Shown in pieces: positions 4,484 through 49,617 of a DNA stretch of 64,000 nt (positions within the stretch are counted from its first letter, which is position 1; the number at the start of each line of letters is the position of its first letter). The stretch is from Candidatus Dormiibacterota bacterium (GTDB taxonomy: Bacteria; Chloroflexota; Dormibacteria; Aeolococcales; Bog-877): the NCBI GenBank assembly GCA_027313505.1, contig DAHVDN010000007.1, forward strand, positions 14,110-78,109, written 5' to 3'. A program made the position numbers and the translations under genes. The notes beneath the pieces were generated by a model. It saw only the letters and a list, made by a program, of their open reading frames with translations. It did not search any database and had not been told where the DNA came from.

Positions 4484-5484
4484 TTTCGGCCGAGGCCGGA
4501 GGGCGCGACCTTCTCAGTTGTCTGAGGTCCCTCAGCGATCAGCGCTATGCCGGAGCGGTCGAGCTCTTGGTGATAGTCGATCGGGATGTGCCGATTGACC
4601 TTCCCGTCCTGCCTTCGTCCCGGCTGGTGCACACTCCGCGTAGAGCGGACCGGTGGGAGCGCGGGGCCCGGTCGCCATGGCACGGATATCGCAACTCAAG
4701 AGGTGAGGTTTTAGTCCTAGTTGGGGCGGAGACCCTGCTGCAACCCGATGCTCTCGACGGCCTGGTGGAAGAGCTCCGACGTCAAGGGGGTGGCCTGGTG
4801 ACCTTGCTCCCCCGTCATCCGGCCAGTGCGGCAGCGGAGGCGGCGCTCAACTCGGGCGTCACCCTAGCCCAGCGGTGCTGGCTTCCGTTGACCTTCCAGG
4901 GCCGACTCATGAGCCGTTTGCTGGGACCGGTCCTGGCAAATGGGCGCTGCACAGCACTCACCCGGAGCAGCTACGAGGCTGCGATCAACCGCGACCCGGA
5001 CGGCACCTCAGCCCGCAGCCAGTCTGGGCTTTTCCAGGTGATGGCCCACTCTGGGGTAGTTGTGCGAGTGCGCGAAGGGATCAACCTGGTAACAGACTTT
5101 GGCTGCCGGTCGCTCCCGGAGACCGCGTCATCGTTCCGGCGCAACTACCACAGGTTGAGCGGCAACTCACTACCGATCGCGCTGCTGGGCCTCATCGGCG
5201 TCGTGTTAACTCAGCTTCTGCCGCAGGCGCTACCCGTTGCGGCCTGGTTTGCGAACGATCGCTCCGCGTTGGCGGCGTCGCTCTTCGCCCTCGCGCTGCT
5301 CTGCTGGCCGCGGGTCTCAGTGGCCCTTCGCGGACGCGAAACGCTCTTGGGCCTCATCTGGCATCCGCTCACATGGCTTGCGGTCCTGGCGCTGCAGTCC
5401 TACTCCATCTTCGACAGAATGTGCGCTCGCGGCGCGATGAGCGAGCACCAGCCGGTCAGCCGCATGGTCGGAGTGGCGCGGTGA
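4414..5484 (+). CDS. GT2-family glycosyltransferase with C-terminal TM region (carotenoid glycosyltransferase, CrtX/CrtQ-like)
   Basis: N-terminal TATIIVSAEAGGRDLLSCLRSLSDQRYAGAVELLVIVDRDV (GT2 Rossmann beta1 and DxD region), and two or more C-terminal TM helices. The start is uncertain (GTG at 4408 or 4414) and must precede the IIVSA strand, so it overlaps the prenyltransferase 3' end by about 70 nt. The long 3748..5484 track ORF is an R-rich artefact upstream. Confidence 0.65.
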   Translation: MRPESAPEGSPRTPGSDPTATIIVSAEAGGRDLLSCLRSLSDQRYAGAVELLVIVDRDVPIDLPVLPSSRLVHTPRRADRWERGARSPWHGYRNSRGEVLVLVGAETLLQPDALDGLVEELRRQGGGLVTLLPRHPASAAAEAALNSGVTLAQRCWLPLTFQGRLMSRLLGPVLANGRCTALTRSSYEAAINRDPDGTSARSQSGLFQVMAHSGVVVRVREGINLVTDFGCRSLPETASSFRRNYHRLSGNSLPIALLGLIGVVLTQLLPQALPVAAWFANDRSALAASLFALALLCWPRVSVALRGRETLLGLIWHPLTWLAVLALQSYSIFDRMCARGAMSEHQPVSRMVGVAR

Positions 5485-7004: not shown

Positions 7005-7822
7005 TGGCACCTGCGATCCAGCCATATCTGGATCGGGCGGTCGAAACGACCAATAGGGTGGCCAGAACCTTTGCATTGGCCACACGCCTACTTCCTCGTG
7101 AGGTGCGCCCGGATGTTTACCTTCTCTACCTGGTGTGTCGCCAGCTGGACGACCTGGTCGACTTTCAAAAGCCCGACGCTGAACGGCGTTTGGGCTGGGT
7201 GGCGAGGTGGGCTGAGCGAGGAGAGGTGCGGGGCCCGGAAGCGGAGATCCTGCAACATCTAGCGGATCGCTATCCAACTCTCCCCCGCGATGCGGTCACC
7301 GACTTCTGCGAGGGCCAGCGTCAGGACATGGGGACGCTTGTCGTCGACACTGAGGCCGATCTGGATCTCTATGCCTACCGAGTTGCTGGCACTGTGGGCC
7401 GCCTGATGGCGACAATCCTGGGTGCCGAAACAGAAGCTGCAGACGAGGCATCTCGCGCCCTGGGGATCGCCATGCAGAGAACCAACATTCTTCGTGACAT
7501 CGATGAGGACCTGGCCCGCGGGCGAGTCTACATCCCGGCTCAGGCCCTGGCTATGGCTGGCGTTCAGGACCTTGCCAGGGACGATCGCACGCTGCTGCTC
7601 CGGGTCGAGATTGCAGTCGCGGACCATTGGTACGAGCTGGGACTCCCGGGAAGCTCCCTGCTCAAGCACGGCGGCAGGCAGGTTCGGGCCGCCGGCGTCA
7701 TGTACCGCCAAATTCTGCGCCAGATCGAACGGGAGGGGCGGGGGGTTCAGCGACCGAAGAGGGTCGTGGTCCCATCGCACCGCAAGCTGCTCGGGTTGGT
7801 CCAGGGATTGGTTCAACCTTGA
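7004..7822 (+). CDS. crtB: Phytoene synthase
   Basis: Squalene/phytoene synthase motifs YLLYLVCRQLDDLVD (Asp-rich 1) and RTNILRDIDEDLARGRVYIP (Asp-rich 2). The GTG start at 7004 overlaps the crtI TAG by 1 nt; an alternative GTG lies at 6992. Confidence 0.85.
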   Translation: MAPAIQPYLDRAVETTNRVARTFALATRLLPREVRPDVYLLYLVCRQLDDLVDFQKPDAERRLGWVARWAERGEVRGPEAEILQHLADRYPTLPRDAVTDFCEGQRQDMGTLVVDTEADLDLYAYRVAGTVGRLMATILGAETEAADEASRALGIAMQRTNILRDIDEDLARGRVYIPAQALAMAGVQDLARDDRTLLLRVEIAVADHWYELGLPGSSLLKHGGRQVRAAGVMYRQILRQIEREGRGVQRPKRVVVPSHRKLLGLVQGLVQP

Positions 7823-7906
7823 TCGCGAGAGGCCCCGGTTCTCATCGGGCCACCGGCGGCCGCTGACACCGACCCCGGTCGCGGTAAGGCCCGAGCCCCA
7901 ATAGGA

Positions 7907-9031
7907 TCAGGCCGGCTGGCGCCCCTCGACCGCGCCCAAAAGGTCGCCGATCGTCAGGGGGACCGCCGCGGGAGCGACTCCGACCTGCTGACTGGCCACG
8001 GACTGCCCCGGCACCAGGGTGGAGCACAGTTCACGCGGGGTGGGCGTGACTGGGCTCACCGCGTCCGTGAGGAACCGACGCATTTTCAGAGCAAGCCAGC
8101 CTGCCGCGCCCGCGGGCAGGGCCACCATCAGATCGAGGATCTGCACCTCGAGCCCGAGGGCTAAAACCCCAGAGATGGGAAGCCCGGCCAGGGCGAGCCC
8201 TCCCGCCCACCACACCTGTGACGTCCCGAGGCCGCCAACGCCCTGAATGGGCAGGGCGAACAGCAGGGTGCGCACCGCCAGAGCGAGCCAAACCTGCCAT
8301 AGGCTGAGATCGGCCCCCAGCGCCCAGAATAGGCAGAGATATTCCACCGCTGCCATAAGGCGCGCTCCCAGCGTCGCGGCGATTAGGGCAACGACTACCC
8401 GCCATCCGGTCAGCTCATCCAGCGCCGCCTCCGCCCTGACCGCAAACGGCTGACAGTGCCGGATCCGCCCCACCCGGGACAGTAGCCAGCGGCGCGAAGG
8501 CTTGACGAAGACCGCCGCCATGGAGAAGCAGAGAACCGTGGCGAGCCCGATCGAGGCAAGGCGCACGGATGTCGGCAGCCGCACCCCCGCCAGATCGGCG
8601 GAGACCAGGAGAATTAGCGCCAGACTAGCCACGTCCAGCAGGCGGGAGATGAGGGCGCTGCCCGTGCCGCGGCTCAGGCTGGACCGAAGGTTTGTGCGCG
8701 AAAGCACGACGAATGTGGCATCGCTGCCCGGGCCAGGTAGCAACTGTCCAGCCCCCCAGCTCGCTGCGGTCACACCCAGTACTGCCCCGATCGATCCTCG
8801 TCCGAGCAGGGTGCGATAGCGCCAAGCGCGCATGGTGACATATCCGCAACCTACCAATGCTCCGACCGCGAACAAGCCCCAGGAGAGGTGCGTCAGCGCC
8901 TGCCCGACCCGCTCAAGAGAGATCTTGGAGATCACCAGCTCTAGGAGCCCAGCCCCTACCAGCGTTCCCACTAGGAGGCGGTTACGGGGTTTCCTCAAAG
9001 CGCCAGCCAGGCGCGCCGGGACTCCATTCAT
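7907..9031 (-). CDS. Polytopic membrane protein, lysylphosphatidylglycerol-synthase-TM / flippase-like (UPF0104) family
   Basis: Eight or more predicted TM helices, rich in G/A/L. The architecture resembles flippase-like domains often found beside GT2 enzymes. The family assignment is by resemblance only. Confidence 0.55.
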   Translation of the reverse strand: MNGVPARLAGALRKPRNRLLVGTLVGAGLLELVISKISLERVGQALTHLSWGLFAVGALVGCGYVTMRAWRYRTLLGRGSIGAVLGVTAASWGAGQLLPGPGSDATFVVLSRTNLRSSLSRGTGSALISRLLDVASLALILLVSADLAGVRLPTSVRLASIGLATVLCFSMAAVFVKPSRRWLLSRVGRIRHCQPFAVRAEAALDELTGWRVVVALIAATLGARLMAAVEYLCLFWALGADLSLWQVWLALAVRTLLFALPIQGVGGLGTSQVWWAGGLALAGLPISGVLALGLEVQILDLMVALPAGAAGWLALKMRRFLTDAVSPVTPTPRELCSTLVPGQSVASQQVGVAPAAVPLTIGDLLGAVEGRQPA

Positions 9032-9112
9032 CGCCCACAGTGTGGCGTCCCTGTCCCCAATCCTCCTTAGTTGGAGCTGAGACTCCAGTGCTTCGGGAGG
9101 GAGATTCCTCGG

Positions 9113-9661
9113 CTACCTCTCCTCCGACACCATGGACTCCGGAACCCCATTGATCTGGTAGGGCAGATCGCTGATGTCGAAGTAGCGCACCGGCTTGCGC
9201 ATCCGCTTGGCGATTCCCACCTGCACCTTCAGCCCCAAGGACAGGTCCCCAAACACCCACATCTCGTCACAACGAGCTATCAGGTTGTTCATGGCCTCGC
9301 GCACCAGATCCTTGGGCACAGTGTGGAGCAGGTAGTAGTCGAAGAGCATGAAGGGAGTGACCGGGACTCGGCCATCGTCGAGCACGTACTTGGTCAGTTG
9401 CTGGCGCCAAAAGAAGTTCCGGTTGCTCATGGCGACATAGACCAGCGGCTTCGGTCGGCGGAGCGTTCGCTCCGCCTGCTCCGCCGGGCTGGCCCTAGGA
9501 GTGGGAGTGAAGATAAGCTCCAAGATGTCATCCGCCGAGCGGGCTGCACCCACCTTGGGTGCAGTTCCGACCTCTCCCTCGCCAGCTCCTTGGGGTTCGC
9601 CCGAAGAGGGGTCCCCAAAGGGCTGGGAGCCGTCGCCACGCGCGCGCTGCTTTGCACCCAA
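9113..9661 (-). CDS. Hypothetical protein with a nucleoside 2-deoxyribosyltransferase-like C-terminal domain
   Basis: The C-terminal 120 aa (LVYVAMSNRNFFW...CDEMWVFGD...GIAKRMRKPVRYF) resembles NDT/Rcl-like folds (YxAG..., GyA..gKPV). The N-terminal 50 aa are low-complexity and the start is uncertain. There is a 12-nt gap to the upstream UDG gene. Confidence 0.45.
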   Translation of the reverse strand: MGAKQRARGDGSQPFGDPSSGEPQGAGEGEVGTAPKVGAARSADDILELIFTPTPRASPAEQAERTLRRPKPLVYVAMSNRNFFWRQQLTKYVLDDGRVPVTPFMLFDYYLLHTVPKDLVREAMNNLIARCDEMWVFGDLSLGLKVQVGIAKRMRKPVRYFDISDLPYQINGVPESMVSEER

Positions 9662-9673
9662 GATTTTCTGGGA

Positions 9674-10396
9674 TTATACGCAATCCAAAGGAGCGATCCG
9701 GGAACTTGCCAAGAGCTCGACCAGCCGACTCAGCCACCCCAGCGCCTTTGCCAGCTGCGCCCTGTGGGACGTTTGATTCAACCAGTGGCTGGCACCGGAA
9801 GGGTGGGGCAGCGGTAGGACCAGCAATCGACCAGGAGGGCGTCGCCATCCCGCCAGCTCTTCGGAAGCTTCCTCTCCACCTTCCCAGAACACTCGACCTA
9901 TCAGCTGTTCCATGGGTCGCGCTCCGATGAAGCGCCCGATCGCAAGTTGACCGACCGCAATCAGCAACAGGGGGCTTAGCAGCCTCAGCTGGTCGTCGAG
10001 GTGGGGCCGACAGAGTTCGACCTCTGTCGCGGACGGCCGTCGGTCCCCCGGTCCGGCGCCGGCAGCTCCGGGAAAGCACTTGGTCACAGAGGTGATATAG
10101 ACGGCTCGTCGAGCCGTAGTCTCGTCGCCAAGGCCGGCCTCCGCGAGCCAGCGAAACAGCTGTCGCCCCGCCCGACCGCTGAACGGCAGCCCACTGTGCT
10201 GCTCGAGTCGACCCGGCGCCTGGCCGATCAGCATCACCTCACTCAGGACCGGACCCGATAGGACGGGGCGGACGGTCGGGATCAATCCACAGTCCTGGCA
10301 CCGTCGGCAGCTCATGATCCTTCGGTGCAGCTGCTCAAGCTGAGCCCCTCGTACCGGAGCGGGGCCGGCTGTCTTTGGAACTTGAAACGGAGGCAC
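9674..10396 (-). CDS. Uracil-DNA glycosylase, family 4 (4Fe-4S type)
   Basis: CRRCQDCGL... Cys cluster, followed by GQAPG (GEAPG-like active-site motif), HPS and SHW regions. Confidence 0.8.
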   Translation of the reverse strand: MPPFQVPKTAGPAPVRGAQLEQLHRRIMSCRRCQDCGLIPTVRPVLSGPVLSEVMLIGQAPGRLEQHSGLPFSGRAGRQLFRWLAEAGLGDETTARRAVYITSVTKCFPGAAGAGPGDRRPSATEVELCRPHLDDQLRLLSPLLLIAVGQLAIGRFIGARPMEQLIGRVFWEGGEEASEELAGWRRPPGRLLVLPLPHPSGASHWLNQTSHRAQLAKALGWLSRLVELLASSRIAPLDCV

Positions 10397-10642: not shown

Positions 10643-10810
10643 ATGGCCATGGTGCCGCTGTTGGTGGTCGCCGCCGTCGTGTTTGGCAGCTTCGGGTTCA
10701 CCCTGGTGAGTGAAATCATGGCAGCGGCCATCCTTCTCATCCTCGCGGGAGCCGCATTGCACCCCATCTGGCGGCGCTCGCGCGACCGCGCTGGAAGTTG
10801 GTGGCGATGA
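10643..10810 (+). CDS. Possible small membrane protein (55 aa)
   Basis: MAMVPLLVVAAVVFGSFGFTLVSEIMAAAILLILAGAALHPIWRRSRDRAGSWWR: two hydrophobic helices with a positive C-terminal tail. ATGA-coupled to the next small ORF. Confidence 0.25.
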   Translation: MAMVPLLVVAAVVFGSFGFTLVSEIMAAAILLILAGAALHPIWRRSRDRAGSWWR

Positions 10811-11103
10811 CGGAGAGACGTGGCGGGCGGCGCTCGGCTCCTGGTCGACTTGTGGAGCTGCCGGCGGTCGCGGCAAAGGTTGGAGCTGAGCTGCGACGCC
10901 GAGCGGATGGGCCCGGTCTGGAGGGGGCCATTGCCGATGGGCTCTTGAGGCTATTGCACCACTCGGCCCGGCTCATGACCGAGATCGGATCCAACTTAGA
11001 GCAGGCGATTACGCCGGAGCAGGCGCCCCGCGCACGCAGAGCCGCGCCCCAAGGGCCAGGCGACAGAACGTCTCGGGTTCGCAAACTCAGGCCTGAGGAC
11101 TGA
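10798..11103 (+). CDS. Possible small protein (101 aa)
   Basis: Start overlaps the previous stop (ATGA at 10807-10810). The sequence is not obviously low-complexity, but no motif is recognised. Confidence 0.2.
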   Translation: MVAMTERRGGRRSAPGRLVELPAVAAKVGAELRRRADGPGLEGAIADGLLRLLHHSARLMTEIGSNLEQAITPEQAPRARRAAPQGPGDRTSRVRKLRPED

Positions 11104-35990: not shown

Positions 35991-36067
35991 CGGCCCGTAG
36001 CTCAGCTGGTTAGAGCGGGGCTCTTATAAAGCTCAGGTCGCGGGTTCGAGTCCCGCCGGGCCGACCA
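35991..36067 (+). tRNA. tRNA-Ile with anticodon UAU (reads AUA)
   Basis: CGGCCCG-TA-GCTC-AGCTGGTTA-GAGC-G-GGGCT-CTTATAA-AGCTC-AGGTC-GCGGG-TTCGAGT-CCCGC-CGGGCCG-A-CCA. Positions 34-36 are TAT. The Ile-like D arm is TAGCTCAGCTGGTTAGAGCG. Confidence 0.75.
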
Positions 36068-40132: not shown

Positions 40133-41104
40133 TCACTGAGGCTCCAGCCCGCGCGCCCGCAGCTCCTCGATGAGGGCGGGGAGTACCTTGAGCACATCCC
40201 CCACGATACCCAGATCACTCAGCTTGAATATGGGTGCGTCCCGATCTCGGTTGATTGCCACAATGTGCCCTGCACTCTTCATTCCCACCGTATGCTGCAT
40301 CGCTCCGCTGATACCACAGGCAATGTACAGGTCCGGCTTCACCGTCTTACCGGTCTGCCCCACCTGACGAGCGTAGGGAACCCAACCCGCGTCCACCACC
40401 GCTCGGCTGGCGCCAACTGCCCCCTGCAGCTGACTGGCGAGCTGGTCTAAGAGAGCGAAGTTTGACGGCTCCTGGAGTCCCCGACCTCCGCTTATGACCA
40501 CCCGGGCCTCCTCCAGCTTCGGCCCCGAGGTTGGGGCCACGACCGACTCCAGTCGGCGCGCACCCAAAGGCGACCCGGCAGGCAGGGACACCTCGACCAA
40601 CCGTGGTGGTGGTCCGCCAAAACCGACGGCCTGGTAGGACTTGGGGCGGACGAGGACGCAAGGGGTGGGACCACGGACCTCAGTGGTCACGTTCAAGGTC
40701 GCGCCGAAGATCGAGCTGCACACCGAAAATCCGCCCGCTGCCGTCGAGATACCGGTGGCGTTGGCTACCACGGTGGAGCCCAACTGAGCGGACAGGTGCC
40801 CACAGATATCTCTGCCGTCGTAAGTCGCGCCGAAAATGAGCAGATCGGGGCGATGCTGCTCCACCAAGCTGGCGAGCACCGCCGCATGGGGCTGCGCGAC
40901 GTGCGTGCCGTAAGCCTCGTCCGTGCCCAGATAGACGGTCGTGGCTCCGAACTCCCCCAAGGTCTCTGTAACCAATCGAGCCTGGGGATTCAAGACCACC
41001 GCTTCCAGCTCCCCCCCGAGGCCCCTCGCCCCTGTCATCACCTCGAGGGAGATGGGGCTCACCTCCTCCTTTGCGAGCTCTACGAATACCCAAATTTTGC
41101 TCAT
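40133..41104 (-). CDS. etfA: Electron transfer flavoprotein subunit alpha
   Basis: C-terminal FAD-binding region DLYIACGISGAMQHTVGMKSAGHIVAINRDRDAPIF. Confidence 0.9.
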   Translation of the reverse strand: MSKIWVFVELAKEEVSPISLEVMTGARGLGGELEAVVLNPQARLVTETLGEFGATTVYLGTDEAYGTHVAQPHAAVLASLVEQHRPDLLIFGATYDGRDICGHLSAQLGSTVVANATGISTAAGGFSVCSSIFGATLNVTTEVRGPTPCVLVRPKSYQAVGFGGPPPRLVEVSLPAGSPLGARRLESVVAPTSGPKLEEARVVISGGRGLQEPSNFALLDQLASQLQGAVGASRAVVDAGWVPYARQVGQTGKTVKPDLYIACGISGAMQHTVGMKSAGHIVAINRDRDAPIFKLSDLGIVGDVLKVLPALIEELRARGLEPQ

Positions 41105-41105
41105 T

Positions 41106-41885
41106 TCAGATCAACTTCAGCTCGGCCAAATACTCGGCGATGACCAGGGCCGCAGAGCCGTCGTCCTCCACGATCCGCCCGGCGTCGCGTTGAGGTGCCG
41201 GCTGGATCAGCGTTACCCGCTGGTGACCCTGCTCCTCGGCGATTAGATCAGCGTCCATGCCCAGCCCGCTGAGGTCGAGTCGTTCCAGCGGACGACCCCG
41301 GGCACCCATGATCCCCTTCAGCGTGGGATATCGAGGCTCATTGATGCCGCCGGTCACCGTCACCACGGCCGGGAGGTCGGCCTCCACCACGTCGTGGCCA
41401 TTCGGCGTCTGGCGGTGGATCAGCACCGTCCTGCCCTCGACCTCCAGCTTCTTGGCAAACGTGAGTGATGGCCACCCCAGCAGCTCGGCGACCGCAGCTG
41501 GAACGGTGCCTGTGTAGCCGTCGGTTGATTCGGTGCAGGCGATGACCAGCTCGGCGGCCGAGCTCCTCACGGCCGCGGCCAGCGCTCGGGCGGTGGTCAG
41601 CGCATCCGCACCGGCCAGCAGTGGATCGCAAATGTGGATGCCGGACGCCGCCCCCATCGCCATGGCTTTTCGAACCACGTCGACGGCCTGCTCGCCCCCC
41701 ATCGAGATTGCAACCACCTCCCCGGCAGTGGCCTCTGCGATACGCAGCCCCGCCTCGACGCCATATGCGTCTCCGGGGTCCAACACCACCTCTCCTCCTT
41801 CTCGAACCAAGCGGTTGGTGCTGAGATCCAGTTTCCCAGGCGCCGACGGGTCAGGAATCTGCTTCACAAAGACGGCTATCTTCAA
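41106..41885 (-). CDS. etfB: Electron transfer flavoprotein subunit beta
   Basis: MKIAVFVKQIPD...; stop is 1 nt from the etfA start. Confidence 0.9.
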   Translation of the reverse strand: MKIAVFVKQIPDPSAPGKLDLSTNRLVREGGEVVLDPGDAYGVEAGLRIAEATAGEVVAISMGGEQAVDVVRKAMAMGAASGIHICDPLLAGADALTTARALAAAVRSSAAELVIACTESTDGYTGTVPAAVAELLGWPSLTFAKKLEVEGRTVLIHRQTPNGHDVVEADLPAVVTVTGGINEPRYPTLKGIMGARGRPLERLDLSGLGMDADLIAEEQGHQRVTLIQPAPQRDAGRIVEDDGSAALVIAEYLAELKLI

Positions 41886-42056: not shown

Positions 42057-42134
42057 GGCCCCGTGGTGTAGCTGGCCTAACACGCCACCCTGTCAAGGTG
42101 GAGATCGGCGGTTCGAATCCGCTCGGGGTCGCCA
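42057..42134 (+). tRNA. tRNA-Asp (anticodon GUC)
   Basis: GGCCCCG acceptor, D arm GTGT/ACAC, anticodon arm CCACC-CTGTCAA-GGTGG, T loop TTCGAAT, discriminator G plus CCA. Confidence 0.9.
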
Positions 42135-42145
42135 CCTCCTCGCAC

Positions 42146-42712
42146 CTACGGCACTGGGTCGGGGTAGATTCGAAACCCGGCGAGGACTCGATGCCGGAGA
42201 CTTTCGTAGAAGGGCAGCGCGGCCCCGTCAGCGAGAAGGTCCAGCCGTTCCCCGCCCGCGGCCGTCAGCGCACTGAGCAGAAGGGTACGCCCCAGGCCGG
42301 TTCGGCGACGATGAGCAGCGACAAGGAGAAGGGCACAGTAGGCCTGTATCTCCCCATCTGAGAGAACCTGGCAGACCCCGATCACCTGTTCTGAATCCCT
42401 CGCCACCATGGTTGTCGATCCGGGACTCGTAAGTGCCCTGAGAGCACGCTCAGGGTCTGTCGGCAAGCTGAGCCACCGCTCGGCGGTGCAGAGCTCTAGC
42501 ACGCCTGGCAAATCCTGAGGGACGACCGGCGCGATCTCCCAACGGGGTGCCGCTAGGTCAGCAGTCGTGCATCGATGTGGATCGGTTATGGCAGCGTCTC
42601 CCCGCGCAACGCACGCAACGCACGCTACGCCCAGCGATTGTAGAGACGGATTATAGACAAATTTCCCTCGTTTACCGCTCCAAACAGAGCGCTCGGTGAA
42701 CCAAGGGGCCAC
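42146..42712 (-). CDS. GNAT-family N-acetyltransferase
   Basis: C-terminal acetyl-CoA-binding motif AHRRRTGLGRTLL (Q/RxxGxG/A); start uncertain. Confidence 0.6.
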   Translation of the reverse strand: MAPWFTERSVWSGKRGKFVYNPSLQSLGVACVACVARGDAAITDPHRCTTADLAAPRWEIAPVVPQDLPGVLELCTAERWLSLPTDPERALRALTSPGSTTMVARDSEQVIGVCQVLSDGEIQAYCALLLVAAHRRRTGLGRTLLLSALTAAGGERLDLLADGAALPFYESLRHRVLAGFRIYPDPVP

Positions 42713-42870
42713 CCGGTTGCCTAATGGTCTAGCTGGCGGGTCGGGCGCCTAATCGAGGGGCGACCGAACCATGGTCCCGGGTCCCGCGGTGCTGCCGACG
42801 CACCAGCTTGTCCCCGCCTGCCCGCTCCCCGTGTCCGTCGACGGTCCGAACGGAAGCGTGCTGTTCTCCC

Positions 42871-43089
42871 TCAGGGGCCCACCTCGGTAACGAGCCTTAG
42901 GGCCTGTTCAGGGCACGCCGCCACGGCACGTTTGGCCAGCTTCGACTGCTCAGGGTCGTAGTCAGGGGATGCAAGCAGGACGGGGAAACCCCAGTCATCC
43001 AGATCGATCAGGCGCGGCGCGATCAAGGCGCATATCCCATGCCCCTTACAGCGAACCGCATCGACCAGGAGCTTTCCCATCAGCGCCAC
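42871..43089 (-). CDS. Small ferredoxin (single-cluster 3Fe-4S/4Fe-4S type)
   Basis: 72 aa; CKGHGICA...ACPEQA cluster ligands. Start overlaps the NuoF-like gene end by 10 nt. Confidence 0.7.
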   Translation of the reverse strand: MALMGKLLVDAVRCKGHGICALIAPRLIDLDDWGFPVLLASPDYDPEQSKLAKRAVAACPEQALRLVTEVGP

Positions 43090-44453
43090 CCCGCACCACT
43101 TGGGGTAGGCACGCGGAAGGTCGGTAGATGCGATTTTCGATCGCAGGGGCCGCGCCGAATGTGACGCTCCACATCATCGGCGAAGACTGCCAAGGCATAC
43201 TGGAGCAATAGCGCAGCCCCGTCCGGATGATGGCAGGCCCCGCGATCGGCGAAAGTGGCTGACCGACGTAACAGCTGGCGCACATCACGTCGACTGACCC
43301 TTCCGAAGGCCAGCTCCGACATCCCCTCGGCGAGCCTGGGCAACCCGAATATGCAGGGGCCACACTGGCCGGCGCTCTCGCTCGCCAGATACCCCAGCAG
43401 CCGTGCCGTCTCCGCGAGGCCGCAGGCCTCCCACGGTAGGATGCCGAGTAGGCCGCACCCCAAAGACAATCCCCTAGCGAGCAGTTGGTCGCGGGCGAGC
43501 GGCTGGTCCCAGGCATCCCTGCCATCTACCCATCGCCCGGCATAACCGCCCAACAGCACCGCTCGAGGAGGGGCATCAAGGCCCGCCCGATCGGTCAGCA
43601 GCTGGCCCACAGTCACCGCCCCTCCGACCTCGAAGACCCTGGGCCCCGGGGGGGTAGCGCCGGCCAGTGTCACCAGGGTCGACCCCGCGGCCCCACTGGT
43701 TCCTGCCAACCTGAACCACCAGGGGCCGCGGCGGGCGATCAGGGCCAGGTGACCCATGGTCTCGGCGTTATGCAGAAGCGTCGGTCGGCCGTGGATTCCT
43801 GCTCGCGCGGCGCGCCGGTCGGTGAGCGGGCGAGCGTCGCCGTCCTCCAGGAAGTGAATGATGGCGCTGGACTCGCCAGCCACGTATCGAGACGGGCCGT
43901 AGGAGATGTCCATGCGAGGCTCGGTCAGACGGGCGCGGCGGCGCTCCTGCACCGCGTTCTTGAGACTAGTGATGGCGCTCCTGGACTCCCGATGGACATG
44001 GATGATCACCTGGTCGGCGTTGACTGCCTCCGCTGCCACCACCGCTCCGTCAAGTACCAGGTGGGGACGCAGCGCCATCAGAGTCCGATCCTTGTGACTT
44101 GCAGGCTCGCTTTCTGAGCCGTTCACCACCACCAAGGGACTGCCTCCCCGCGCCGCCACCGTGCGCATCTTGACGGCCGCGGGGAACCCAGCACCCCCGC
44201 GGCCCTGAAGCCCGCTCTCCTCGACGACCCGGCGTATGTGGGCGGCGTCTCCCAATCCGGGCAGCGGTCCGAGACGGTCTAGGTGATCTACTAAGGACTC
44301 CATACCGGCCACGGCCTTCGGCCCGGCCAGGATGCGACTCCCGGCCTCACCGACCCCGGCCAGCAGCTGGTCCGGATTGCTGGCGAGCTCATCCGGAACA
44401 ACTGGGGTTTGTGGATTGGTCAAGGACAGCAAGTCGGTGTGGACACCACTCAC
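43080..44453 (-). CDS. NuoF-like NADH-binding FMN/4Fe-4S flavoprotein (complex I 51-kDa subunit paralogue)
   Basis: GRGGAGFPAAVK (NADH-binding GRGGAGFPTG), VVNGSESEPASHKDRTLM, and ESAGQCGPCIFG (N3 cluster ESCGxCxPC). Confidence 0.85.
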   Translation of the reverse strand: MSGVHTDLLSLTNPQTPVVPDELASNPDQLLAGVGEAGSRILAGPKAVAGMESLVDHLDRLGPLPGLGDAAHIRRVVEESGLQGRGGAGFPAAVKMRTVAARGGSPLVVVNGSESEPASHKDRTLMALRPHLVLDGAVVAAEAVNADQVIIHVHRESRSAITSLKNAVQERRRARLTEPRMDISYGPSRYVAGESSAIIHFLEDGDARPLTDRRAARAGIHGRPTLLHNAETMGHLALIARRGPWWFRLAGTSGAAGSTLVTLAGATPPGPRVFEVGGAVTVGQLLTDRAGLDAPPRAVLLGGYAGRWVDGRDAWDQPLARDQLLARGLSLGCGLLGILPWEACGLAETARLLGYLASESAGQCGPCIFGLPRLAEGMSELAFGRVSRRDVRQLLRRSATFADRGACHHPDGAALLLQYALAVFADDVERHIRRGPCDRKSHLPTFRVPTPSGAGWR

Positions 44454-45163
44454 AAATATGCGTCCCCATGACCGGGATAGGAGGTGGCAGCGCTGGGTTG
44501 CCCGGGACTCGAGGGCGGCTCCAACCGGCTCGCGCCAAACCGAGTGGCCACCACGACCAGCAGCACACCTCCGGTGACCACGTACATCGGTCGCAGCACT
44601 CCGGTGTCACTCCCTGCCAACACACTGTGCAACCAAGCCAAAGCCACCGCCAGGAGTGCCAACCGATGAACTGCAAGCCAGTGGCGCCCGAAAAAACGGC
44701 CCGCCAGGGCAGCGGTAATCCCCATCGCGGCGCCGAGATACAAACTCACAGAACCCAGACCGACCGCGAACGGACGGTACGTCGCCTTTCCAGGTGCGAT
44801 CACCCCCAGCCATCCGACGCCGGCAAATGTATCCAGGGCGAATACGATGACGTGCCCCGCAACCAGGATGCAGGCAGCCACTGCCAAGGCGACATGAAGC
44901 CGCAGCAGGACTGCTGGATGGAGGACCGGTCGCCGCCATCTCCATGGGTGACGGAACCAAGTACCGACCAGAGCGAGAGCGACGATGTCCAGGTAGGCTG
45001 CCAGTCCCAGCCCCCGTCCCAGGATCCAGGGCATCATCCGGTCGTGCAGTGCGGGCTCCACCAGCGTTATGAGGAGTGCAGCAGTTACTGCCCCACCAAG
45101 TGCCGCGACCACCGCGGATGCGCCGTGGTGAGGGACCCGAGGCAAGCTGCCACCGGCCTTCAC
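44450..45163 (-). CDS. Ferric-reductase-domain (MsrQ/YedZ-like) di-haem b membrane protein
   Basis: Six TM helices. Two helices each carry a His pair 13-14 residues apart (LHVALAVAACILVAGHV; HRLALLAVALAWLHSV). ATGA overlaps on both sides (45160-45163 and 44450-44453). Confidence 0.7.
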   Translation of the reverse strand: MKAGGSLPRVPHHGASAVVAALGGAVTAALLITLVEPALHDRMMPWILGRGLGLAAYLDIVALALVGTWFRHPWRWRRPVLHPAVLLRLHVALAVAACILVAGHVIVFALDTFAGVGWLGVIAPGKATYRPFAVGLGSVSLYLGAAMGITAALAGRFFGRHWLAVHRLALLAVALAWLHSVLAGSDTGVLRPMYVVTGGVLLVVVATRFGASRLEPPSSPGQPSAATSYPGHGDAYL

Positions 45164-46146
45164 GCGCGACGCCAGACTAGGAATGGAGCCATGGCCCTGC
45201 TGATGGCGAGACCGCCACCGTCGTCAATCCACAGCGCGGCCAGCCCTCGCTCGTCGGAGAACCGTTGCACCCCCTCGGACCCTTCAAGGAAGAGGGATTT
45301 GCTCCAGACCTCAGCGATAGCCGGATCCTTGTCGATGACCGTCACGGCTCTCAGGCCAGATCCTCCTGGCAGGCCGGTTCGAGGGTCGATCAGGTGGTGG
45401 ACCAGGGTTCCTCCCGCTTCCCAGTGACGCAGGCGGATCGAGGATGTGGCACATGCTCGATCAGATAGCTCCAACACCGCCACCGGCTCGCTGTCTCCAA
45501 AGGGGTCCTCGACTCCGACTTTCCAGAGGTCACCGGCGGGTGCTCTGCCTGCGCAGTAACAGTCTCCGCCCGCCTCCACGAGATGGTCAGGGGCGACTGC
45601 CCTCAGCCTCTGGCTTGCCCAGCGAACTGCAAGGCCCTTCCCAATACCGCCGAGATCGACTGGGCGGCCACCTAGCAACACAGTCCTTCGGACCCGTCGA
45701 AATCGTGGTCGCCACTCGCCCATGGGACGCCTCGCCAGTGGGCTTCGCACCCCGGTCTGAACCGGACCGGAACCGAAGGGCAGGGAGTGGTCGTAGCCCA
45801 GGCGCGTTAGGTCCCCCATGATGCGAGGGTCGAAGCGGCCCTGGGTAAGCAGGTAGGCCCGATAGGCCTCCGAAATGGCCCGAAAGCATGGGGGTGGGAC
45901 CCTGCGCCAGCTGTCGGGGGCGGCATTCGCCAGCATAAGTGGGCTGGTCGGGACGAACCGGGTACAGCTCTTCTCTACCTCCTCAAAGACCTTCAGCGCA
46001 TGATCGACCGCGCGCTCCGGAGTCGCTCTGTCGGCGCTTGCTAGAGCCCGGATGCTGATGCTGCTGGCCATTGCGACGGCAGTCCCGGAAACCTCCACCG
46101 GTGCCCTGTCAGGGAACGGCAACCCCAGAGGCTCCAGTCGTCGCAT
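45160..46146 (-). CDS. apbE: FAD:protein FMN transferase
   Basis: ApbE-fold motifs (GTAVAMASSISIRA near the N-terminus; DLGGIGKGLAV; VEAGGD). No signal peptide is visible from the ATG at 46146; the longer track ORF (to 46428) is R/P-rich upstream. Confidence 0.85.
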   Translation of the reverse strand: MRRLEPLGLPFPDRAPVEVSGTAVAMASSISIRALASADRATPERAVDHALKVFEEVEKSCTRFVPTSPLMLANAAPDSWRRVPPPCFRAISEAYRAYLLTQGRFDPRIMGDLTRLGYDHSLPFGSGPVQTGVRSPLARRPMGEWRPRFRRVRRTVLLGGRPVDLGGIGKGLAVRWASQRLRAVAPDHLVEAGGDCYCAGRAPAGDLWKVGVEDPFGDSEPVAVLELSDRACATSSIRLRHWEAGGTLVHHLIDPRTGLPGGSGLRAVTVIDKDPAIAEVWSKSLFLEGSEGVQRFSDERGLAALWIDDGGGLAISRAMAPFLVWRRA

Positions 46147-46522
46147 GCACCGTTGGAGCGGCGGGTAAGGGGGGCAGCGGGGAGCCCGCCAAGTGAGCGA
46201 TCTGCCGTTCGTCGGAGTCGATGCGCTCCTGCAACCGCTGCACCTGCACCTGAGTCTTGAGCCACGCCGCCTGAGCCGCGGTCTGAGGTGAGGCTCCGTG
46301 GGGGGTGACGTTGGCCCCCGGTGTCGACGAGGCCGCCCAGCTGATCGCGCCCATCGTGGCCAACCCGGTGGCGGCGGCGGCCGCCCACGGAGTGATTCGG
46401 CGACGGAGAGCGCGGCGCCATCGCTCACTCCGTAGCGCCGCCGCTCTCAGGTCAGTTGTCGCCGCCACTTCCACCTCCGTCCCCGCTCGAGGAGCCGCTG
46501 GCGCCGGTGGTGGTATGGACAA
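46109..46522 (-). CDS. Tat-signal mini-protein A with C-terminal VHATTGASG (putative ApbE flavinylation site)
   Basis: RRRITPWAAAAATGLATMGAISWAASS Tat-like signal, a coiled-coil-like middle and a C-terminus PTVHATTGASGVAVP. It is a paralogue of the next ORF with different synonymous codons at the motif. Its 3' end overlaps the apbE start in another frame; its own start is uncertain. Confidence 0.45.
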   Translation of the reverse strand: MSIPPPAPAAPRAGTEVEVAATTDLRAAALRSERWRRALRRRITPWAAAAATGLATMGAISWAASSTPGANVTPHGASPQTAAQAAWLKTQVQVQRLQERIDSDERQIAHLAGSPLPPLPAAPTVHATTGASGVAVP

Positions 46523-46772
46523 TTGGAGCCGCAGTCGCCGCTGGAACCGGCCGCTTGCGCATGGCGACCGCTTCAGCGGAGAGCCTCTTTGCCTCGGCGG
46601 CCAGCCGCTTCGCCTCCGCGGTGATCACTTGCTGCTGAGTCAGGGCATGTTGACTGGAAGCCGCCGGGCTTGCAGCGGCAGTCCCGGGCGCCGCTGCCAA
46701 TGCAGCGGCCCCACCAGCCGCTGCCCCGACCACAGCGGCGGCCGTTGCGATCAAGCGACGTCGAGAAACCAT
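46452..46772 (-). CDS. Tat-signal mini-protein B with C-terminal VHTTTGASG (putative ApbE flavinylation site)
   Basis: MVSRRRLIATAAAVVGAAAGGAAALAAAPG (S-R-R-x-L-I Tat motif), QQQVITAEAKRLAAEAKRLSAEA helix, APIVHTTTGASGSSSGDGGGSGGDN tail. Confidence 0.5.
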   Translation of the reverse strand: MVSRRRLIATAAAVVGAAAGGAAALAAAPGTAAASPAASSQHALTQQQVITAEAKRLAAEAKRLSAEAVAMRKRPVPAATAAPIVHTTTGASGSSSGDGGGSGGDN

Positions 46773-47058
46773 GCCTGCGACCTCCTACTTCTATGAACCC
46801 TGCTTAGCGTAGCCGTCGATCGATGACGAAGCGGTGACGAGTAGATGAGAGTTGTCTTATTCCAAAGTGCCAGGGCCGAGTGACGAAAGGCGTCGGTGGA
46901 CGCCGCTAGGCATCAGCAAATCAAGCTAAAAAGATGGGCATTTGATGAGCGCCATCGTGGGGGAAGTCCAGCTAGGATCGGCTTGCGACCGCCCTTCGCT
47001 GTTTCCCAGAATGACTCCAGTGCCGCCGGGTGCGCGATCCATCGTCTATGGTGGGACG

Positions 47059-47466
47059 ATGCTCACTGGCACGGCCGGACTGCGTACCCTGCTGCGCCGG
47101 GCCGCCGGCGTTGGGGCCGGGCTCGCAGCAGTGGTCGTGGTAAGCGCCGCAGCTGCGGCGACTCTCGGACCCAGCTCGAACAGCAGCCACATCGCCCAGC
47201 GGCAGGTTGTCCTAGGGGGCGCAGCGCCGGCGCCGGGCCAACTTGCTACCGCCCCAAAGCCACGGGTCGGCGTCGACAAGGGGACTGCGGTGCGGGTGGT
47301 GCCGCCGTTCGAGCCAGTTATCCAAAGTGAGCCCTCCCAGCCCGTGGAGACAGGTTCAGACACCTCAGGAGGGACCGGCCAGTCGAGCGACGCCACCCCA
47401 AGCCCGGAGTCGAGCGGGTCCTCCCCTGGTCAATCCACACCGAGTCCATCCGGCGCTGACGGGTAA
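47059..47466 (+). CDS. Secreted low-complexity protein upstream of the sensor kinase
   Basis: MLTGTAGLRTLLRRAAGVGAGLAAVVVVSAAAAA signal, then a Pro/Ser/Gly-rich C-terminus. Stop lies 5 nt before the HK start. Confidence 0.4.
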   Translation: MLTGTAGLRTLLRRAAGVGAGLAAVVVVSAAAAATLGPSSNSSHIAQRQVVLGGAAPAPGQLATAPKPRVGVDKGTAVRVVPPFEPVIQSEPSQPVETGSDTSGGTGQSSDATPSPESSGSSPGQSTPSPSGADG

Positions 47467-47470: not shown

Positions 47471-48943
47471 GTGGCCGAATCACTAGTCCTGGAACCCACT
47501 GAACGTACAAGTCGGCGGTGGCGGCCGGGGCTGGCGGTCCGGTTGGCGGCCTTGCATGCCGGAATTCTTACAGTGGTGCTGGTCGCGGTAGGCATCCAGG
47601 TGGACAGAATTGTGGCCGGTAATCTCCTCGCCAGTGTCAACACCGGTCTGGTAGAAGAGCTCGCCGAATACGGCAACGCGGCCGCCCACAGGGTTAACGG
47701 CACCCCCTTGGTGACCTTCGATCAGAGCTACCTGCGTTCCCACCAACTTCCAAGTGGGCACGCCGTCCTGCTTGCCGTAGCAAGAGGTGCCGCGCCCCCC
47801 CGTGGTGCGATCCTGGGAAGCTCGGGCTCGAATCAAATCCGGAGCTCTCCGCTGGTGGCAAACTGGTTGAACCACATTCCAAATCAAAGCCTTTTCGGCC
47901 AGATCACGGCCGGCGGCGTGAGCTACCGGGTGTTGGTCAGCCCTGTGCTCAGCGGCGGCCAGGTCGTCGGCGCCTTCATCGCAAGTGCTGACCTGACCGG
48001 TGTGTCTCAGGCGGTAGCCAGCCAGCTGGTGGCCGTCATCGTGGAGGGAGCGGTTGCCCTGATCGCTGCCGTCCTGACTGCCTACCTGCTGCTGCGCCGA
48101 GTCTTGAGGGTGGTGGACGGGGTCACCACCACCGCTGCGGATATCAGCGAATCCGACCTCACACGCCGCTTAGCGTACCGGGGCCCGGATGACGAGGTGG
48201 GCCGTCTGGCACGAACCTTTGACCGAATGTTGGAACGGCTCTCTGCTAGTTTCGCCGGCCAGCGACGTCTACTCGCGGATGTCTCCCACCAATTGAGGAC
48301 TCCGCTGACTGTCATCAGGGGCCACCTAGAGCTCCTGCTACGCGACGGGACCTCCGATGCTGACGAGGTGGCCGGCACTCTCGCCGTAGTTCTCGACGAG
48401 TTGGATGGGACGGCCCTTCTCGTGGATCGCCTACTCTTGCTGGGACGAGCATTGGAGCCAGAGTTTCTCGAGGAGGAGCCAATCGCGTTGGGCTCATTCC
48501 TGGCAGACATCCTCGATGCCGGGGAGGTCCTGGGCGACCGGAACTGGGTGTTGCGACCGGTCCCCCCCGTGGGCGTGTTCGGGGACCGCACCAAGCTCCG
48601 CGGTGCATTGCTGAACCTGATAGACAACGCCGTCAAGGCCACCAAGCCCGACGACACGATCGCGCTTGAGGCACGGATTTCCGGCCATGTCCTCACGCTG
48701 ACCGTCAGCGACACCGGCGTAGGGATCGAGCCCGAGATCCGAGACTCGGTCTTCGATCGATTCGTAGCCGGGAGGGCTGGGGGGCCACGCGGAACGGGGC
48801 TTGGCCTGGCAATCGTCCGCGCGGTCGTCGAGGCGCACGGTGGTCAGGTCACTCTGGAAAGTTCGCCTGGCCGAGGGTGCAGTATCGAGATCACCCTGCC
48901 CGCCAACCGAATAATCCCCTCCGGTGAAGGGGCCAGCAGTTGA
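47471..48943 (+). CDS. Two-component sensor histidine kinase
   Basis: Two TM helices and a periplasmic loop, a HAMP domain, H-box LADVSHQLRTPLT, and G-boxes DTGVGIE / GTGLGLAIV. GTG start at 47471. Confidence 0.85.
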   Translation: MAESLVLEPTERTSRRWRPGLAVRLAALHAGILTVVLVAVGIQVDRIVAGNLLASVNTGLVEELAEYGNAAAHRVNGTPLVTFDQSYLRSHQLPSGHAVLLAVARGAAPPRGAILGSSGSNQIRSSPLVANWLNHIPNQSLFGQITAGGVSYRVLVSPVLSGGQVVGAFIASADLTGVSQAVASQLVAVIVEGAVALIAAVLTAYLLLRRVLRVVDGVTTTAADISESDLTRRLAYRGPDDEVGRLARTFDRMLERLSASFAGQRRLLADVSHQLRTPLTVIRGHLELLLRDGTSDADEVAGTLAVVLDELDGTALLVDRLLLLGRALEPEFLEEEPIALGSFLADILDAGEVLGDRNWVLRPVPPVGVFGDRTKLRGALLNLIDNAVKATKPDDTIALEARISGHVLTLTVSDTGVGIEPEIRDSVFDRFVAGRAGGPRGTGLGLAIVRAVVEAHGGQVTLESSPGRGCSIEITLPANRIIPSGEGASS

Positions 48944-49617
48944 AAATTCTGATCACTGAAGACGACGCGCGGATTGCCAACTTCGTCGCGAAGGGCCTGC
49001 GGGCCGAGGGGTACGTGACCGTTGTGGCTTCGACTGGGGCCGAGGCTCTACTCCTCATCCAAATCCGGGACGAGAGCCCCGACCTGGTGCTGCTCGACCT
49101 CGGCCTGCCCGACCAGGATGGCCTCACGGTTCTGCGCAAGATGCGTGGAGTTCGACCAGAGTTGCCCGTTATCATCCTCACCGCTCGGCGCGAGCTGGGT
49201 GAGAAGGTCCGGGGCTTAGACGCCGGGGCAAGGGACTACGTGACCAAGCCATTCGCCTTCGAGGAGTTGCTGGCACGAATCCGGGCGACTCTGCGCGACC
49301 GTGACCAGGAGACTTTGACCACCCTGGTGGTCGGCGATCTTCGGCTTGACCTGCAGACTAAGATTGCCTGGCGCGGGGAGCGCCGGATTGAGCTCGCTCG
49401 GCGAGAGTGGGCGCTCCTGGAATTACTCATGCGCAACCCGACCAAGCTGCTGTCTCGAATGCAAATTCTCAACCAGGTGTGGGACTATGGCTTCGACCCC
49501 GGCAGTAACGTGGTGGATGTCTACGTGGGCTACCTACGGCGCAAGGTCAACGGACCCGGCGAGACGCAGCTCATCCAGACGGTCCGAGGCGCGGGGTACC
49601 GACTGACGCCACCCTGA
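48940..49617 (+). CDS. OmpR-family response regulator
   Basis: Receiver domain (DD...D...K pattern) plus a winged-helix C-terminus ending GAGYRL. TTG start overlaps the HK stop (TTGA). Confidence 0.9.
   Translation: MKILITEDDARIANFVAKGLRAEGYVTVVASTGAEALLLIQIRDESPDLVLLDLGLPDQDGLTVLRKMRGVRPELPVIILTARRELGEKVRGLDAGARDYVTKPFAFEELLARIRATLRDRDQETLTTLVVGDLRLDLQTKIAWRGERRIELARREWALLELLMRNPTKLLSRMQILNQVWDYGFDPGSNVVDVYVGYLRRKVNGPGETQLIQTVRGAGYRLTPP

Follow-up and report, generated by a model that had tools for sequence, protein, structure and literature searches.

The stretch of 64,000 nucleotides (nt) of contig DAHVDN010000007.1 that was analyzed here (the window) contains, on the minus strand of positions 42871-46772, a cluster of six genes that includes apbE. 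The products are two small proteins (miniB and miniA), a member of the ApbE family of flavin adenine dinucleotide (FAD):protein flavin mononucleotide (FMN) transferases, a membrane cytochrome b, a NuoF-like flavoprotein predicted to bind reduced nicotinamide adenine dinucleotide (NADH), and a small ferredoxin (table 1). Both small proteins contain the sequence VH[TA]TTGASG, which includes the predicted site of FMN attachment by ApbE and is called the tag below. The cluster is described here as a candidate system for the export of electrons from NADH to tethered flavins.

The six co-directional genes reported in the first-pass annotation were borne out by the open reading frames (ORFs) and agree with the public gene calls of the same contig (GCA_027313535.1, DAHVDM010000003.1). 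Several junctions had to be corrected. Both 4-nt overlaps, previously given as ATGA, read GTGA (GTG start over TGA stop; 45163-45160 and 44453-44450), and the GTG start of miniA at 46468 overlaps the miniB stop by 17 nt. An overlap of miniA with the start of apbE had also been described, which is true only for the longest apbE ORF of 422 amino acids (aa). This ORF was rejected because the Pfam profile begins at its residue 120, and because the N-termini of homologues and the public gene call disagree with it; the called GTG start at 46098 lies 10 nt past the miniA stop at 46109. The 10-nt overlap between the ferredoxin and NuoF-like genes stands if the ferredoxin starts at GTG 43089, but becomes a 1-nt TGATG junction if it starts at ATG 43080. 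A scan of 42600-47300 for promoters and terminators was uninformative, with no promoters and two terminator-like sites against 2.1 expected.

Table 1. Features of the apbE cluster and of the divergent genes beside it, in window coordinates.
Feature	Position	Strand	Basis
miniB (B-type tag protein, 106 aa)	46452..46772	-	ORF; AGGAGG 8 nt 5' of ATG; same gene in public assemblies
miniA (A-type tag protein, 119 aa)	46109..46468	-	GTG start behind GGAGG; 119 aa in public gene calls
ApbE-family FAD:protein FMN transferase (312 aa)	45160..46098	-	PF02424; start as in public gene call, GTG 46098
Membrane cytochrome b, six helices, ferric-reductase-domain superfamily, NOX-type four-His (237 aa)	44450..45163	-	His pattern, homologues, predicted fold
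NuoF-like NADH-binding flavoprotein (457 aa)	43080..44453	-	PF01512 and PF10589
Small single-cluster ferredoxin (69-72 aa), three Cys CKGHGIC...CP	42871..43089	-	Fer4_15
Predicted flavinylation tag of miniB, H86-T-T-T-G-A-S92	46497..46517	-	Ser92 is the predicted FMN site; core matches [S/T]-G-A-[S/T]
Predicted flavinylation tag of miniA, H108-A-T-T-G-A-S114	46127..46147	-	Five residues before the C-terminus; family logo
C-type small membrane-anchored low-complexity protein (169 aa)	46957..47466	+	Public gene call; divergent, directly 5' of the kinase
Sensor histidine kinase HAMP-HisKA-HATPase (490 aa)	47471..48943	+	Public gene call and Pfam annotation
OmpR-family response regulator (225 aa)	48940..49617	+	NCBIfam matches, below cutoff

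Conservation of the cluster and of the tag

A scan of one genome per GTDB species yielded 64 related loci, nearly all of them in metagenome-assembled genomes (MAGs), and the six-frame ORFs of these loci were searched with the window proteins. Most belong to Acidimicrobiales/Acidimicrobiaceae (Acidimicrobiia), and the others to Dormibacterota, Mycobacteriales, Frankiaceae and, in one case, Bacillota. ApbE and the membrane protein are encoded at all 64 loci. The NuoF-like protein is encoded at 57, and six of the seven cases in which it was missed are at contig ends; its gene is followed by the ferredoxin gene at 55. Conservation of the gene neighbourhood, proposed earlier as a check, was thereby confirmed. 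A histidine kinase and an OmpR-type regulator are adjacent at 33 of the loci, usually just downstream; in the window they are divergent (47471-49617). When the ORFs flanking the 64 loci were clustered all against all, with MsrP, VIT1, transporters and Tat genes looked for, no other family was present at more than 12 loci. The six genes are a real, conserved unit, and the divergent C-type protein, kinase and regulator belong with them.

Two observations concern the composition of the locus set. The whole set of genes for ApbE, the membrane protein and the NuoF-like protein (and ferredoxin) is tandemly duplicated in two Acidimicrobiaceae MAGs, L036 and L040 (about 2300-5600 and 6400-10100); the copies in L040 each come with an upstream tag gene of their own, and in L036 the first copy looks fragmented. 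Four loci (L013, L016, L020 and L032) are titled Micrarchaeaceae archaeon, Nanopelagicaceae, Acidiferrales and Verrucomicrobiia. Their clusters are of a near-identical, Dormibacterota type, and the odd labels are probably binning or taxonomy errors in the source MAGs.

The position of the tag gene is likewise conserved. The background for the motif was taken from 6530 six-frame ORFs of at least 60 aa from the 64 loci. A [ST]GA[ST] sequence no more than eight residues from the C-terminus occurred in 86 of these, 70 of which lie directly upstream of apbE and 16 elsewhere, a distribution that chance composition does not explain. Counted by locus, a gene bearing the tag stands immediately upstream of apbE, in the same orientation, in 55 of 64 by the ORF rule, and direct translation adds three more; of the six loci left, two are truncated by the contig edge. 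In the other cluster proteins (ApbE, membrane protein, NuoF-like protein, ferredoxin, kinase and regulator) [ST]GA[ST] is sporadic, found in at most 5 of about 64 and at no conserved position. None of them was retained as a target of ApbE, since none keeps the motif. The proposal of the first-pass annotation that the mini-proteins are the ApbE substrates is likely to be correct, given a tag gene beside apbE in at least 58 of the 64 loci and no competing protein in the cluster.

Tag proteins fall into two groups, called A-type and B-type after miniA and miniB. The logo of 58 unique A-type proteins reads P(57/58)-P-V-[H24/T20]-[A/T]-T-T-G(58)-A(58)-[S48/T10]-x-x-[P/K]-(P)-stop, with two to five residues after the tag Ser/Thr in 55 of the 58. 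That of 23 unique B-type proteins reads P-x-[T/V]-H-[A/T]-T-T-G-A-S-G and continues into an acidic tail rich in Gly, Ser, Asp and His. The [S/T]-G-A-[S/T] core is found in all 58 A-type proteins, with invariant Gly and Ala, and in the 23 B-type proteins. The known ApbE motif is D-x-x-[S/T]-G-A-[S/T], in which FMN is attached to the last residue and seven residues suffice (PMC12052999). The Asp of this motif is not conserved in the tag proteins; in the A-type its position is held by His (24), Thr (20), Gln, Lys and others. Changing the Asp to Ala in a tested ApbE substrate had only minor effects (PMC12052999). The tag is probably the flavinylation site, which is a strong inference from conservation rather than a demonstration. 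A synthetic peptide version of the tag, PPLPAAPTVHATTGASGVAVP, is a candidate substrate for ApbE.

Structure of the tag proteins and of ApbE

MiniB has an N-terminal SRRRLIA and an Ala/Gly-rich hydrophobic segment. A helical stretch, AEAKRLAAEAKRL, leads from there to the tag VHTTTGAS, and behind the tag lies an acidic Gly/Ser/Asp tail (GSSSGDGGGSGGDN). In miniA, an Arg-rich n-region (RWRRALRRRITPW) is followed by a hydrophobic segment ending in SWA-AS. A helix and a Pro-rich linker connect this segment to the C-terminal tag TVHATTGASGVAVP, after which the frame stops. Both proteins had been described as ending in VHxTTGASG. The motif is present in both, but in miniB 14 Gly/Ser/Asp residues come after it.

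Neither mini-protein matched a Pfam family at E<=1, and nothing meaningful came from Pfam and NCBIfam together, USP19_linker (0.056) and YicS (0.11) included. Membership of FMN_bind was rejected, and the comparison with the hidden Markov model (HMM) of FMN_bind (PF04205), suggested earlier, gave no match. In the AlphaFold2 model of miniA, residues 3-48 and 61-95 form helices, and the tail of residues 96-119, which bears the tag, is disordered (predicted local distance difference test score, pLDDT, below 50). Neither Pfam nor the model indicates that the motif lies in a folded FMN_bind domain.

In a word-indexed search, the two mini-proteins retrieved 11 relatives, some of them from MAGs named Candidatus Dormibacteria, which form the same two groups. 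The A-type relatives (P0001-P0003, P0005 and P0008) end in ...HATTGASGV(A)VP, and in the B-type relatives (P0004, P0006, P0007 and P0009-P0011) H[TA]TTGASG is followed by GDGGGSGGD[NSG]. The latter are 34-66% identical to miniB over the aligned regions (no figure is available for P0010), and H-x-T-T-G-A-S-G is invariant in the alignment of miniB relatives. On the relatives' contigs the order miniB, miniA, ApbE, membrane protein, NuoF-like protein and Fer4_15 ferredoxin is the same, and the flanks are different (GDPD upstream, DEAD helicase downstream), indicating that the operon block behaves as a unit. When 1.84 billion cluster representatives were searched with a profile, only 45 relatives came up, and every one inspected bears an [ST]GA[ST]-like tag or a close variant. 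Such low-complexity proteins are poorly detected by profiles, and synteny uncovered far more of them.

In A-type proteins the tag is preceded by an Arg-rich n-region, by one moderately hydrophobic segment of Ala, Gly, Thr and Val that often closes with an A-W-A-like site, and then by a helical stretch and a Pro/Ala/Thr linker. In the Dormibacterota group the mature part measures about 57-73 aa. In Acidimicrobiia, where long linkers bring the tag proteins to 130-520 aa overall, it has about 95-190 aa and can reach about 450 aa. As linker length varies in this way and is greatest in Acidimicrobiia, the window proteins represent the short end of the family. The small size stressed in the first-pass annotation is correct for the window, but it is a local feature.

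The B-type group also includes variants in the number of tags. P0156 (L076, 2548-3153), which lies in the same cluster of ApbE, membrane protein, NuoF-like protein, Fer4_15 and histidine kinase, carries five tandem tags of about 12 residues each (...RPAAHTTTGASGT...) before its acidic tail, indicating that the short peptide is the functional unit. The TGAS tag is missing from some B-type homologues (L010 4131-4565, L065 111-539 and L009 3954-4478), in which the anchor, the coiled coil and an acidic GGDGGGGDD-like end are kept. Given these homologues, the acidic tail may act independently of flavin. One further ORF, at 10764-11045 (+) of L011/L024, ends in ...APATHTTSGASGG and is located away from apbE, opposite a Tad-pilus gene region; it could be another tag protein or a chance ORF.

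Among the A-type proteins, 51 of 58 have an RR pair or an Arg-rich n-region ahead of the hydrophobic segment; RR is found there in 12 of 23 B-type proteins. This arrangement predicts that the tag proteins have the N-terminus inside and the C-terminus outside. Both mini-proteins had been assigned a twin-arginine translocation (Tat) motif. This holds for miniB, whose SRRRLIA fits the motif, but RRRITPW of miniA fits poorly, as do most A-type proteins. The n-regions of the A-type mostly have no RR-x-hydrophobic-hydrophobic sequence, and many B-type relatives have a single Arg. Export by the Tat system is therefore not established by these n-regions.

The identification of ApbE by its HMM was confirmed with a full-length match to PF02424 (E=9.5e-44, profile positions 1-265 of 266). 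Among proteins of known structure, TM1553 (3.9e-20) and Listeria FmnB (1.1e-16) were matched. The sequences DLGGIGKG, EAGGD and HHLIDPRTG are conserved, and in the alignment with FmnB the Ser (TSS), His (HHLIDP) and Arg (LR) are kept. For FmnB and Vc_ApbE a catalytic Ser-His-Asp and an Arg that contacts FAD have been described (PMC12052999). The Asp of the triad is replaced by Glu (AEVWSK), and the GxYER motif (TSGDYER) by TSSIRLR (SIRLR).

Position 1 of the ApbE profile lies about 10 residues from the start of the protein, and no signal peptide or lipobox was found. Across the family, the distance from the upstream stop codon to profile position 1 is typically 9-18 codons, which leaves no space for a signal peptide or lipobox. 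Such an N-terminal signal is usual among ApbE proteins but not obligatory. The earlier remark that ApbE has no visible signal peptide thus applies to the family as a whole, for which the sequences predict a cytosolic enzyme. Cytosolic ApbEs are known (PMC12052999). With ApbE in the cytosol and the tag proteins oriented N-in and C-out, the tail would be modified before export.

Membrane cytochrome, electron donors and divergent genes

The membrane protein of the window matched no Pfam family at E<=1, including PF01794 (ferric reductase domain), the HMM proposed earlier for checking it; 9 of 31 close homologues did match PF01794, the best with 3.4e-07. At E<=1e-3 the protein has 158 homologues, from Acidimicrobiales, Mycobacteriales and other Actinomycetota. 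The pairs of His residues reported 13-14 apart are present as H90/H104 (14 apart) and H166/H179 (13 apart). They are invariant in the 31 homologues and correspond to the bis-haem pairs of transmembrane helices (TM) 3 and 5. A cytoplasmic loop with RHPWR is likewise invariant, and conserved positions of the outer loops are D111...G117...Y129-R130-P131 and G184-S-D186. The predicted fold has six TM with a cofactor-binding four-helix core and is nearest to those of NOX5, SpNOX and NOX2.

In MsrQ and STEAP an Arg (Arg77) occupies the inner site of TM3, where a cytosolic flavin is bound, whereas NOX and DUOX proteins have His and a second haem there (PMC12525009). Since the protein of the window has His at the site equivalent to Arg77, it is predicted to be of the NOX type with two haems, and the MsrQ type (one haem plus FMN) was rejected. 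The protein is also not MsrQ proper by profile (NCBIfam MsrQ E=0.016, 14.7 bits against a cutoff of 130), and no MsrP-like gene is conserved nearby. The bis-haem ferric-reductase-domain assignment of the first-pass annotation is thus supported by His pattern, homologues and predicted fold, and is refined to a putative NOX-type protein. By the positive-inside rule, we infer that H90/H166 face the cytoplasm and H104/H179 the outside.

The NuoF-like protein matched both expected domains, Complex1_51K (PF01512, 4.5e-35) and NADH_4Fe-4S (PF10589, 8e-15), and aligned with Thermus Nqo1 (2.5e-40) over GRGGAGFP, NGSESEP (NxSESEP in the family) and YVAGESSA. The FMN and NADH motifs are kept, and the two hallmarks noted previously, GRGGAGFP and ESAGQCGPC, are present. 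It is not an equivalog of NuoF (nuoF_fam score 176 against a cutoff of 559), and no NuoE, NuoG or other nuo genes are adjacent. ESAGQCGPC (43350-43376) is without the first Cys of the canonical NuoF sequence ESCGxCxPC. In the family the iron-sulphur (Fe-S) motif is E[ST][AS]GQCG[PTS]C, and the first Cys is changed to Ala or Ser in nearly all homologues examined (L012-L075). Two other Cys are seen in the family, a recurring one some 20 residues before the motif (ACGL) and one after it in G[AG]CxHPDG. Because the first Cys is replaced while other Cys recur, the Fe-S ligation may be rearranged, which suggests altered ligation or a different cluster type. The ferredoxin (Fer4_15, E=3.2e-11) has three Cys in the arrangement CxxHxxC...CP, which we take to be the pattern of actinobacterial [3Fe-4S] ferredoxins.

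The best NCBIfam match of the divergent kinase was the heavy-metal sensor kinase family cztS_silS_copS (158 bits, below cutoff). The regulator best matched cztR_silR_copR (1.6e-63, also below cutoff) and also matched HprR (1e-52). Counterparts of the C-type protein (e.g. L011 6863-7240, L009 8498-9007) precede the kinase in most loci having one, and the C-type gene probably forms an operon with the kinase and regulator genes. The relatives start with WWxxPG-TM, continue with ...PSRPV[VI]T... and a Thr/Ser/Pro-rich stretch, and end in GDH, GDE or GDN; this acidic end resembles the tail of the B-type proteins.

Proposed electron path and comparison with known systems

Gene content and its conservation, the tag motif, the predicted fold and His pattern of the cytochrome, and an ApbE free of a signal peptide are the observations from which flavinylation, topology, the direction of electron flow, the export route and the acceptor were deduced. 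On this basis we favor, with a probability of about 0.55, a conserved module that would export electrons from NADH to tethered flavins. NADH would be oxidized by the stand-alone NuoF-like flavoprotein, and the electrons would pass from its FMN and Fe-S cluster to the three-Cys ferredoxin, and from there to the inner and then the outer haem of the cytochrome. The acceptor at the outer face would be FMN bound covalently to the Ser/Thr of the ...PPV[H/T][A/T]TTGA[S/T] tag, which would pass electrons on to an external acceptor. One or two membrane-tethered proteins, for the most part unfolded, would carry the tag at the C-terminus or close to it, the A-type with anchor, helix, Pro/Ala/Thr linker and tag, and the B-type with the same parts plus the acidic Gly/Asp/Ser/His tail. 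The adjacent ApbE would draw on cytosolic FAD to attach the FMN, either ahead of export or in its course. Flavins tethered in this way would serve as one-electron carriers, of short range in Dormibacterota (about 60 aa mature) and spanning the wall in Acidimicrobiia (linkers of 100-450 aa). For the terminal acceptor we would guess at a metal ion, for example Fe(III) or Cu(II), because of the acidic tail of the B-type, the similar end of the C-type protein, and the metal-sensor families that are the best, though sub-cutoff, matches of kinase and regulator.

Several points weigh against this proposal. The tags have His, Thr or Gln where the canonical motif has Asp, and ApbE belongs to a subfamily that is diverged at TSGDYER (TSSIRLR) and in its triad (Asp to Glu), as judged by alignment. 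Some B-type relatives (L010, L065) have no tag. The Fe-S site of the NuoF-like protein is missing one canonical Cys, and the membrane protein of the window is below the Pfam Ferric_reduct threshold. A cytosolic ApbE and an extracytoplasmic tag would require export of the modified tail, and the Tat motif is weak or absent in many family members, which leaves the route unexplained. No terminal reductase or transporter is conserved nearby and the acceptor is a guess.

The export of a modified tail would not be required if the flavin of the tag worked on the cytoplasmic side, with the tail docking at the inner face and bridging the NuoF-like protein and ferredoxin to the haem, in the manner of the non-covalent flavin of MsrQ and STEAP. 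The cytosolic location of ApbE throughout the family, the invariant RHPWR of the cytoplasmic loop, and the use of a cytosolic flavin beside haem by MsrQ and STEAP (PMC12525009) would suit such an arrangement. It is nevertheless improbable, as the four haem-ligand His are invariant and one of them occupies the Arg site of MsrQ/STEAP, so that the inner site should hold haem (PMC12525009). In addition, the strongly Arg-rich n-region predicts the C-terminus to be outside, and the long Pro/Thr/Ala linkers argue for the same side. Linkers of this kind are typical of extracytoplasmic, wall-spanning regions.

The missing Asp, the diverged TSGxYER motif of the ApbE subfamily and the B-type proteins without a tag could alternatively mean that the TTGAS tails are not flavinylated and are instead a signal for sorting, processing or another modification, with ApbE in another role, such as FAD hydrolysis or the modification of an unlinked protein. 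We regard this as equally improbable, since the G-A-[S/T] core is invariant as in ApbE substrates, the tag gene is coupled to apbE (overlapping or nearly abutting) in nearly every locus, tandem tag repeats exist, the catalytic Ser, His and Arg of ApbE are retained, and the Asp was dispensable in tested substrates (PMC12052999). Still unlikely, though somewhat less so, is that the wiring is as proposed and its purpose different, i.e. a NOX-like oxidase reducing O2 to superoxide or H2O2, or an electron supply for MsrPQ-like repair under oxidative stress, rather than a metal reductase. The nearest folds are NOX proteins, and an oxidant-linked role is a live rival because the regulator resembles HprR and the HprSR system of E. 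coli controls msrPQ (10.1101/2021.09.09.459708; PMC9302797). On the other hand, clustering of the flanking ORFs revealed no conserved MsrP-type molybdoenzyme or other periplasmic reductase, NOX enzymes do not require a flavin to accept electrons after the outer haem, and both the acidic Gly/Asp/His tails and the best sub-threshold matches of kinase and regulator point to metals.

The gene combination, thought in the first-pass annotation to be undescribed, is not new in outline, because clusters of apbE with MsrQ-like proteins are broadly distributed in Actinobacteria, typically as apbE plus an FMN_bind gene, and 31 of them include a NuoF-like protein (Méheust et al. 2021, PMC8238504); split systems of Fre and MsrQ are known as well. 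The substrate type does seem to be new. Like the cluster described here, those of Méheust et al. are centered in Actinobacteria and have apbE beside a ferric-reductase-domain protein and a cytosolic NAD(P)H module, with a proposed flow from cytosolic NAD(P)H through the membrane to a flavinylated extracytosolic acceptor. Unlike the typical ones, the present cluster has no FMN_bind, DUF2271 or DUF3570 protein and a terminal peptide on a disordered tether, its ApbE is predicted to be cytosolic, and its membrane protein is mostly below the PF01794 threshold. The pipeline of that study required a signal peptide or lipobox on ApbE, FMN_bind, DUF2271 or DUF3570, as well as PF01794, and left 'orphan' apbE genes in 4% of genomes (PMC8238504). 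Clusters of the present kind would mostly escape it, owing to the signal-peptide/lipobox and PF01794 requirements.

Three other systems share parts of the proposed design. The engineered Flavin-tag (Tong et al. 2021; PMC12052999) is also a terminal peptide of at least seven residues that ends in [S/T]-G-A-[S/T], lies outside a folded flavin-binding domain, is flavinylated by ApbE and works best at a terminus. It was made in the laboratory from NqrC-type motifs and begins with Asp, whereas the tag found here is natural, has Pro-Pro-Val-[His/Thr] in place of Asp-x, and belongs to a dedicated redox operon. In E. coli MsrPQ with Fre, a split NOX-like system, the membrane protein is likewise fed by a separate cytosolic NAD(P)H flavoprotein, hands electrons to a periplasmic partner and is encoded beside an OmpR-family two-component system (HprSR). 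However, MsrQ has one haem plus cytosolic FMN and Arg77 (PMC12525009), whereas the present cluster has His at this site, no MsrP, and a NuoF-like protein with ferredoxin instead of Fre as the donor. The multi-flavinylated FMN_bind proteins of Gram-positive bacteria ('beads-on-a-string'; PMC8238504, PMC11334425, PMC10339131) are extracytoplasmic carriers, associated with membrane or wall, of one to many flavins attached by ApbE; they are proposed to move electrons over distance, and P0156 is analogous to them. Each of their flavins is held in a folded FMN_bind domain of 120-160 aa, whereas the unit of the tag proteins is a peptide of about 12 residues for which no fold is predicted.

The substrate classes listed by Huang et al. 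2024 (FMN-bind1/2, NqrB/RnfD, DUF2271, Flavodoxin_4 and FMN reductase; PMC11334425) are all folded, and with DUF3570 added, the ApbE substrates described so far hold their flavin in a folded domain or a membrane subunit (FMN_bind and NqrB/RnfD among them). The literature searched contained no description of C-terminal or disordered ApbE tags, or of the cluster in Acidimicrobiia. The undescribed element appears to be the substrate class together with a cytosolic ApbE. We tentatively propose, at somewhat less than even odds, that domain-free flavoproteins occur in at least two phyla, in which a C-terminal peptide of about 10 residues (in up to five repeats) on a disordered, membrane-tethered protein carries ApbE-attached FMN, as a 'flavin on a leash'. 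If so, such proteins would be reduced by the outer haem of a NOX-type cytochrome and carry the electrons across the envelope, in the B-type to metal ions held by the acidic tail. Flavinylation would then take place in the cytoplasm before export, ApbE would have a structurally new class of substrate, and monoderm bacteria would have a new way to transfer electrons outside the cytoplasm without exporting FAD. This raises the question of how a flavinylated tail made in the cytosol crosses the membrane. It would also show that the principle of the Flavin-tag exists in nature, and would explain some of the 'orphan apbE' genomes of Méheust et al. 2021. Little-studied lineages of soil, peat and permafrost (Acidimicrobiia, Dormibacterota) would then gain a candidate route for NADH-driven extracellular reduction.

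The region 3' of the operon contains two minus-strand ORFs (40133-41885) that by eye resemble an EtfA/EtfB pair of electron-transfer flavoproteins, a tRNA-Asp detected by ARAGORN (42057-42134, +), and a 188-aa ORF (42146-42712, -) that by eye is acetyltransferase-like and had no NCBIfam match. These neighbours are not kept beside the operon in related contigs. ARAGORN also detected a tRNA-Ile with the anticodon TAT at 35991-36067 (+). This anticodon is uncommon in bacteria, in which AUA is usually read via a modified CAU anticodon.

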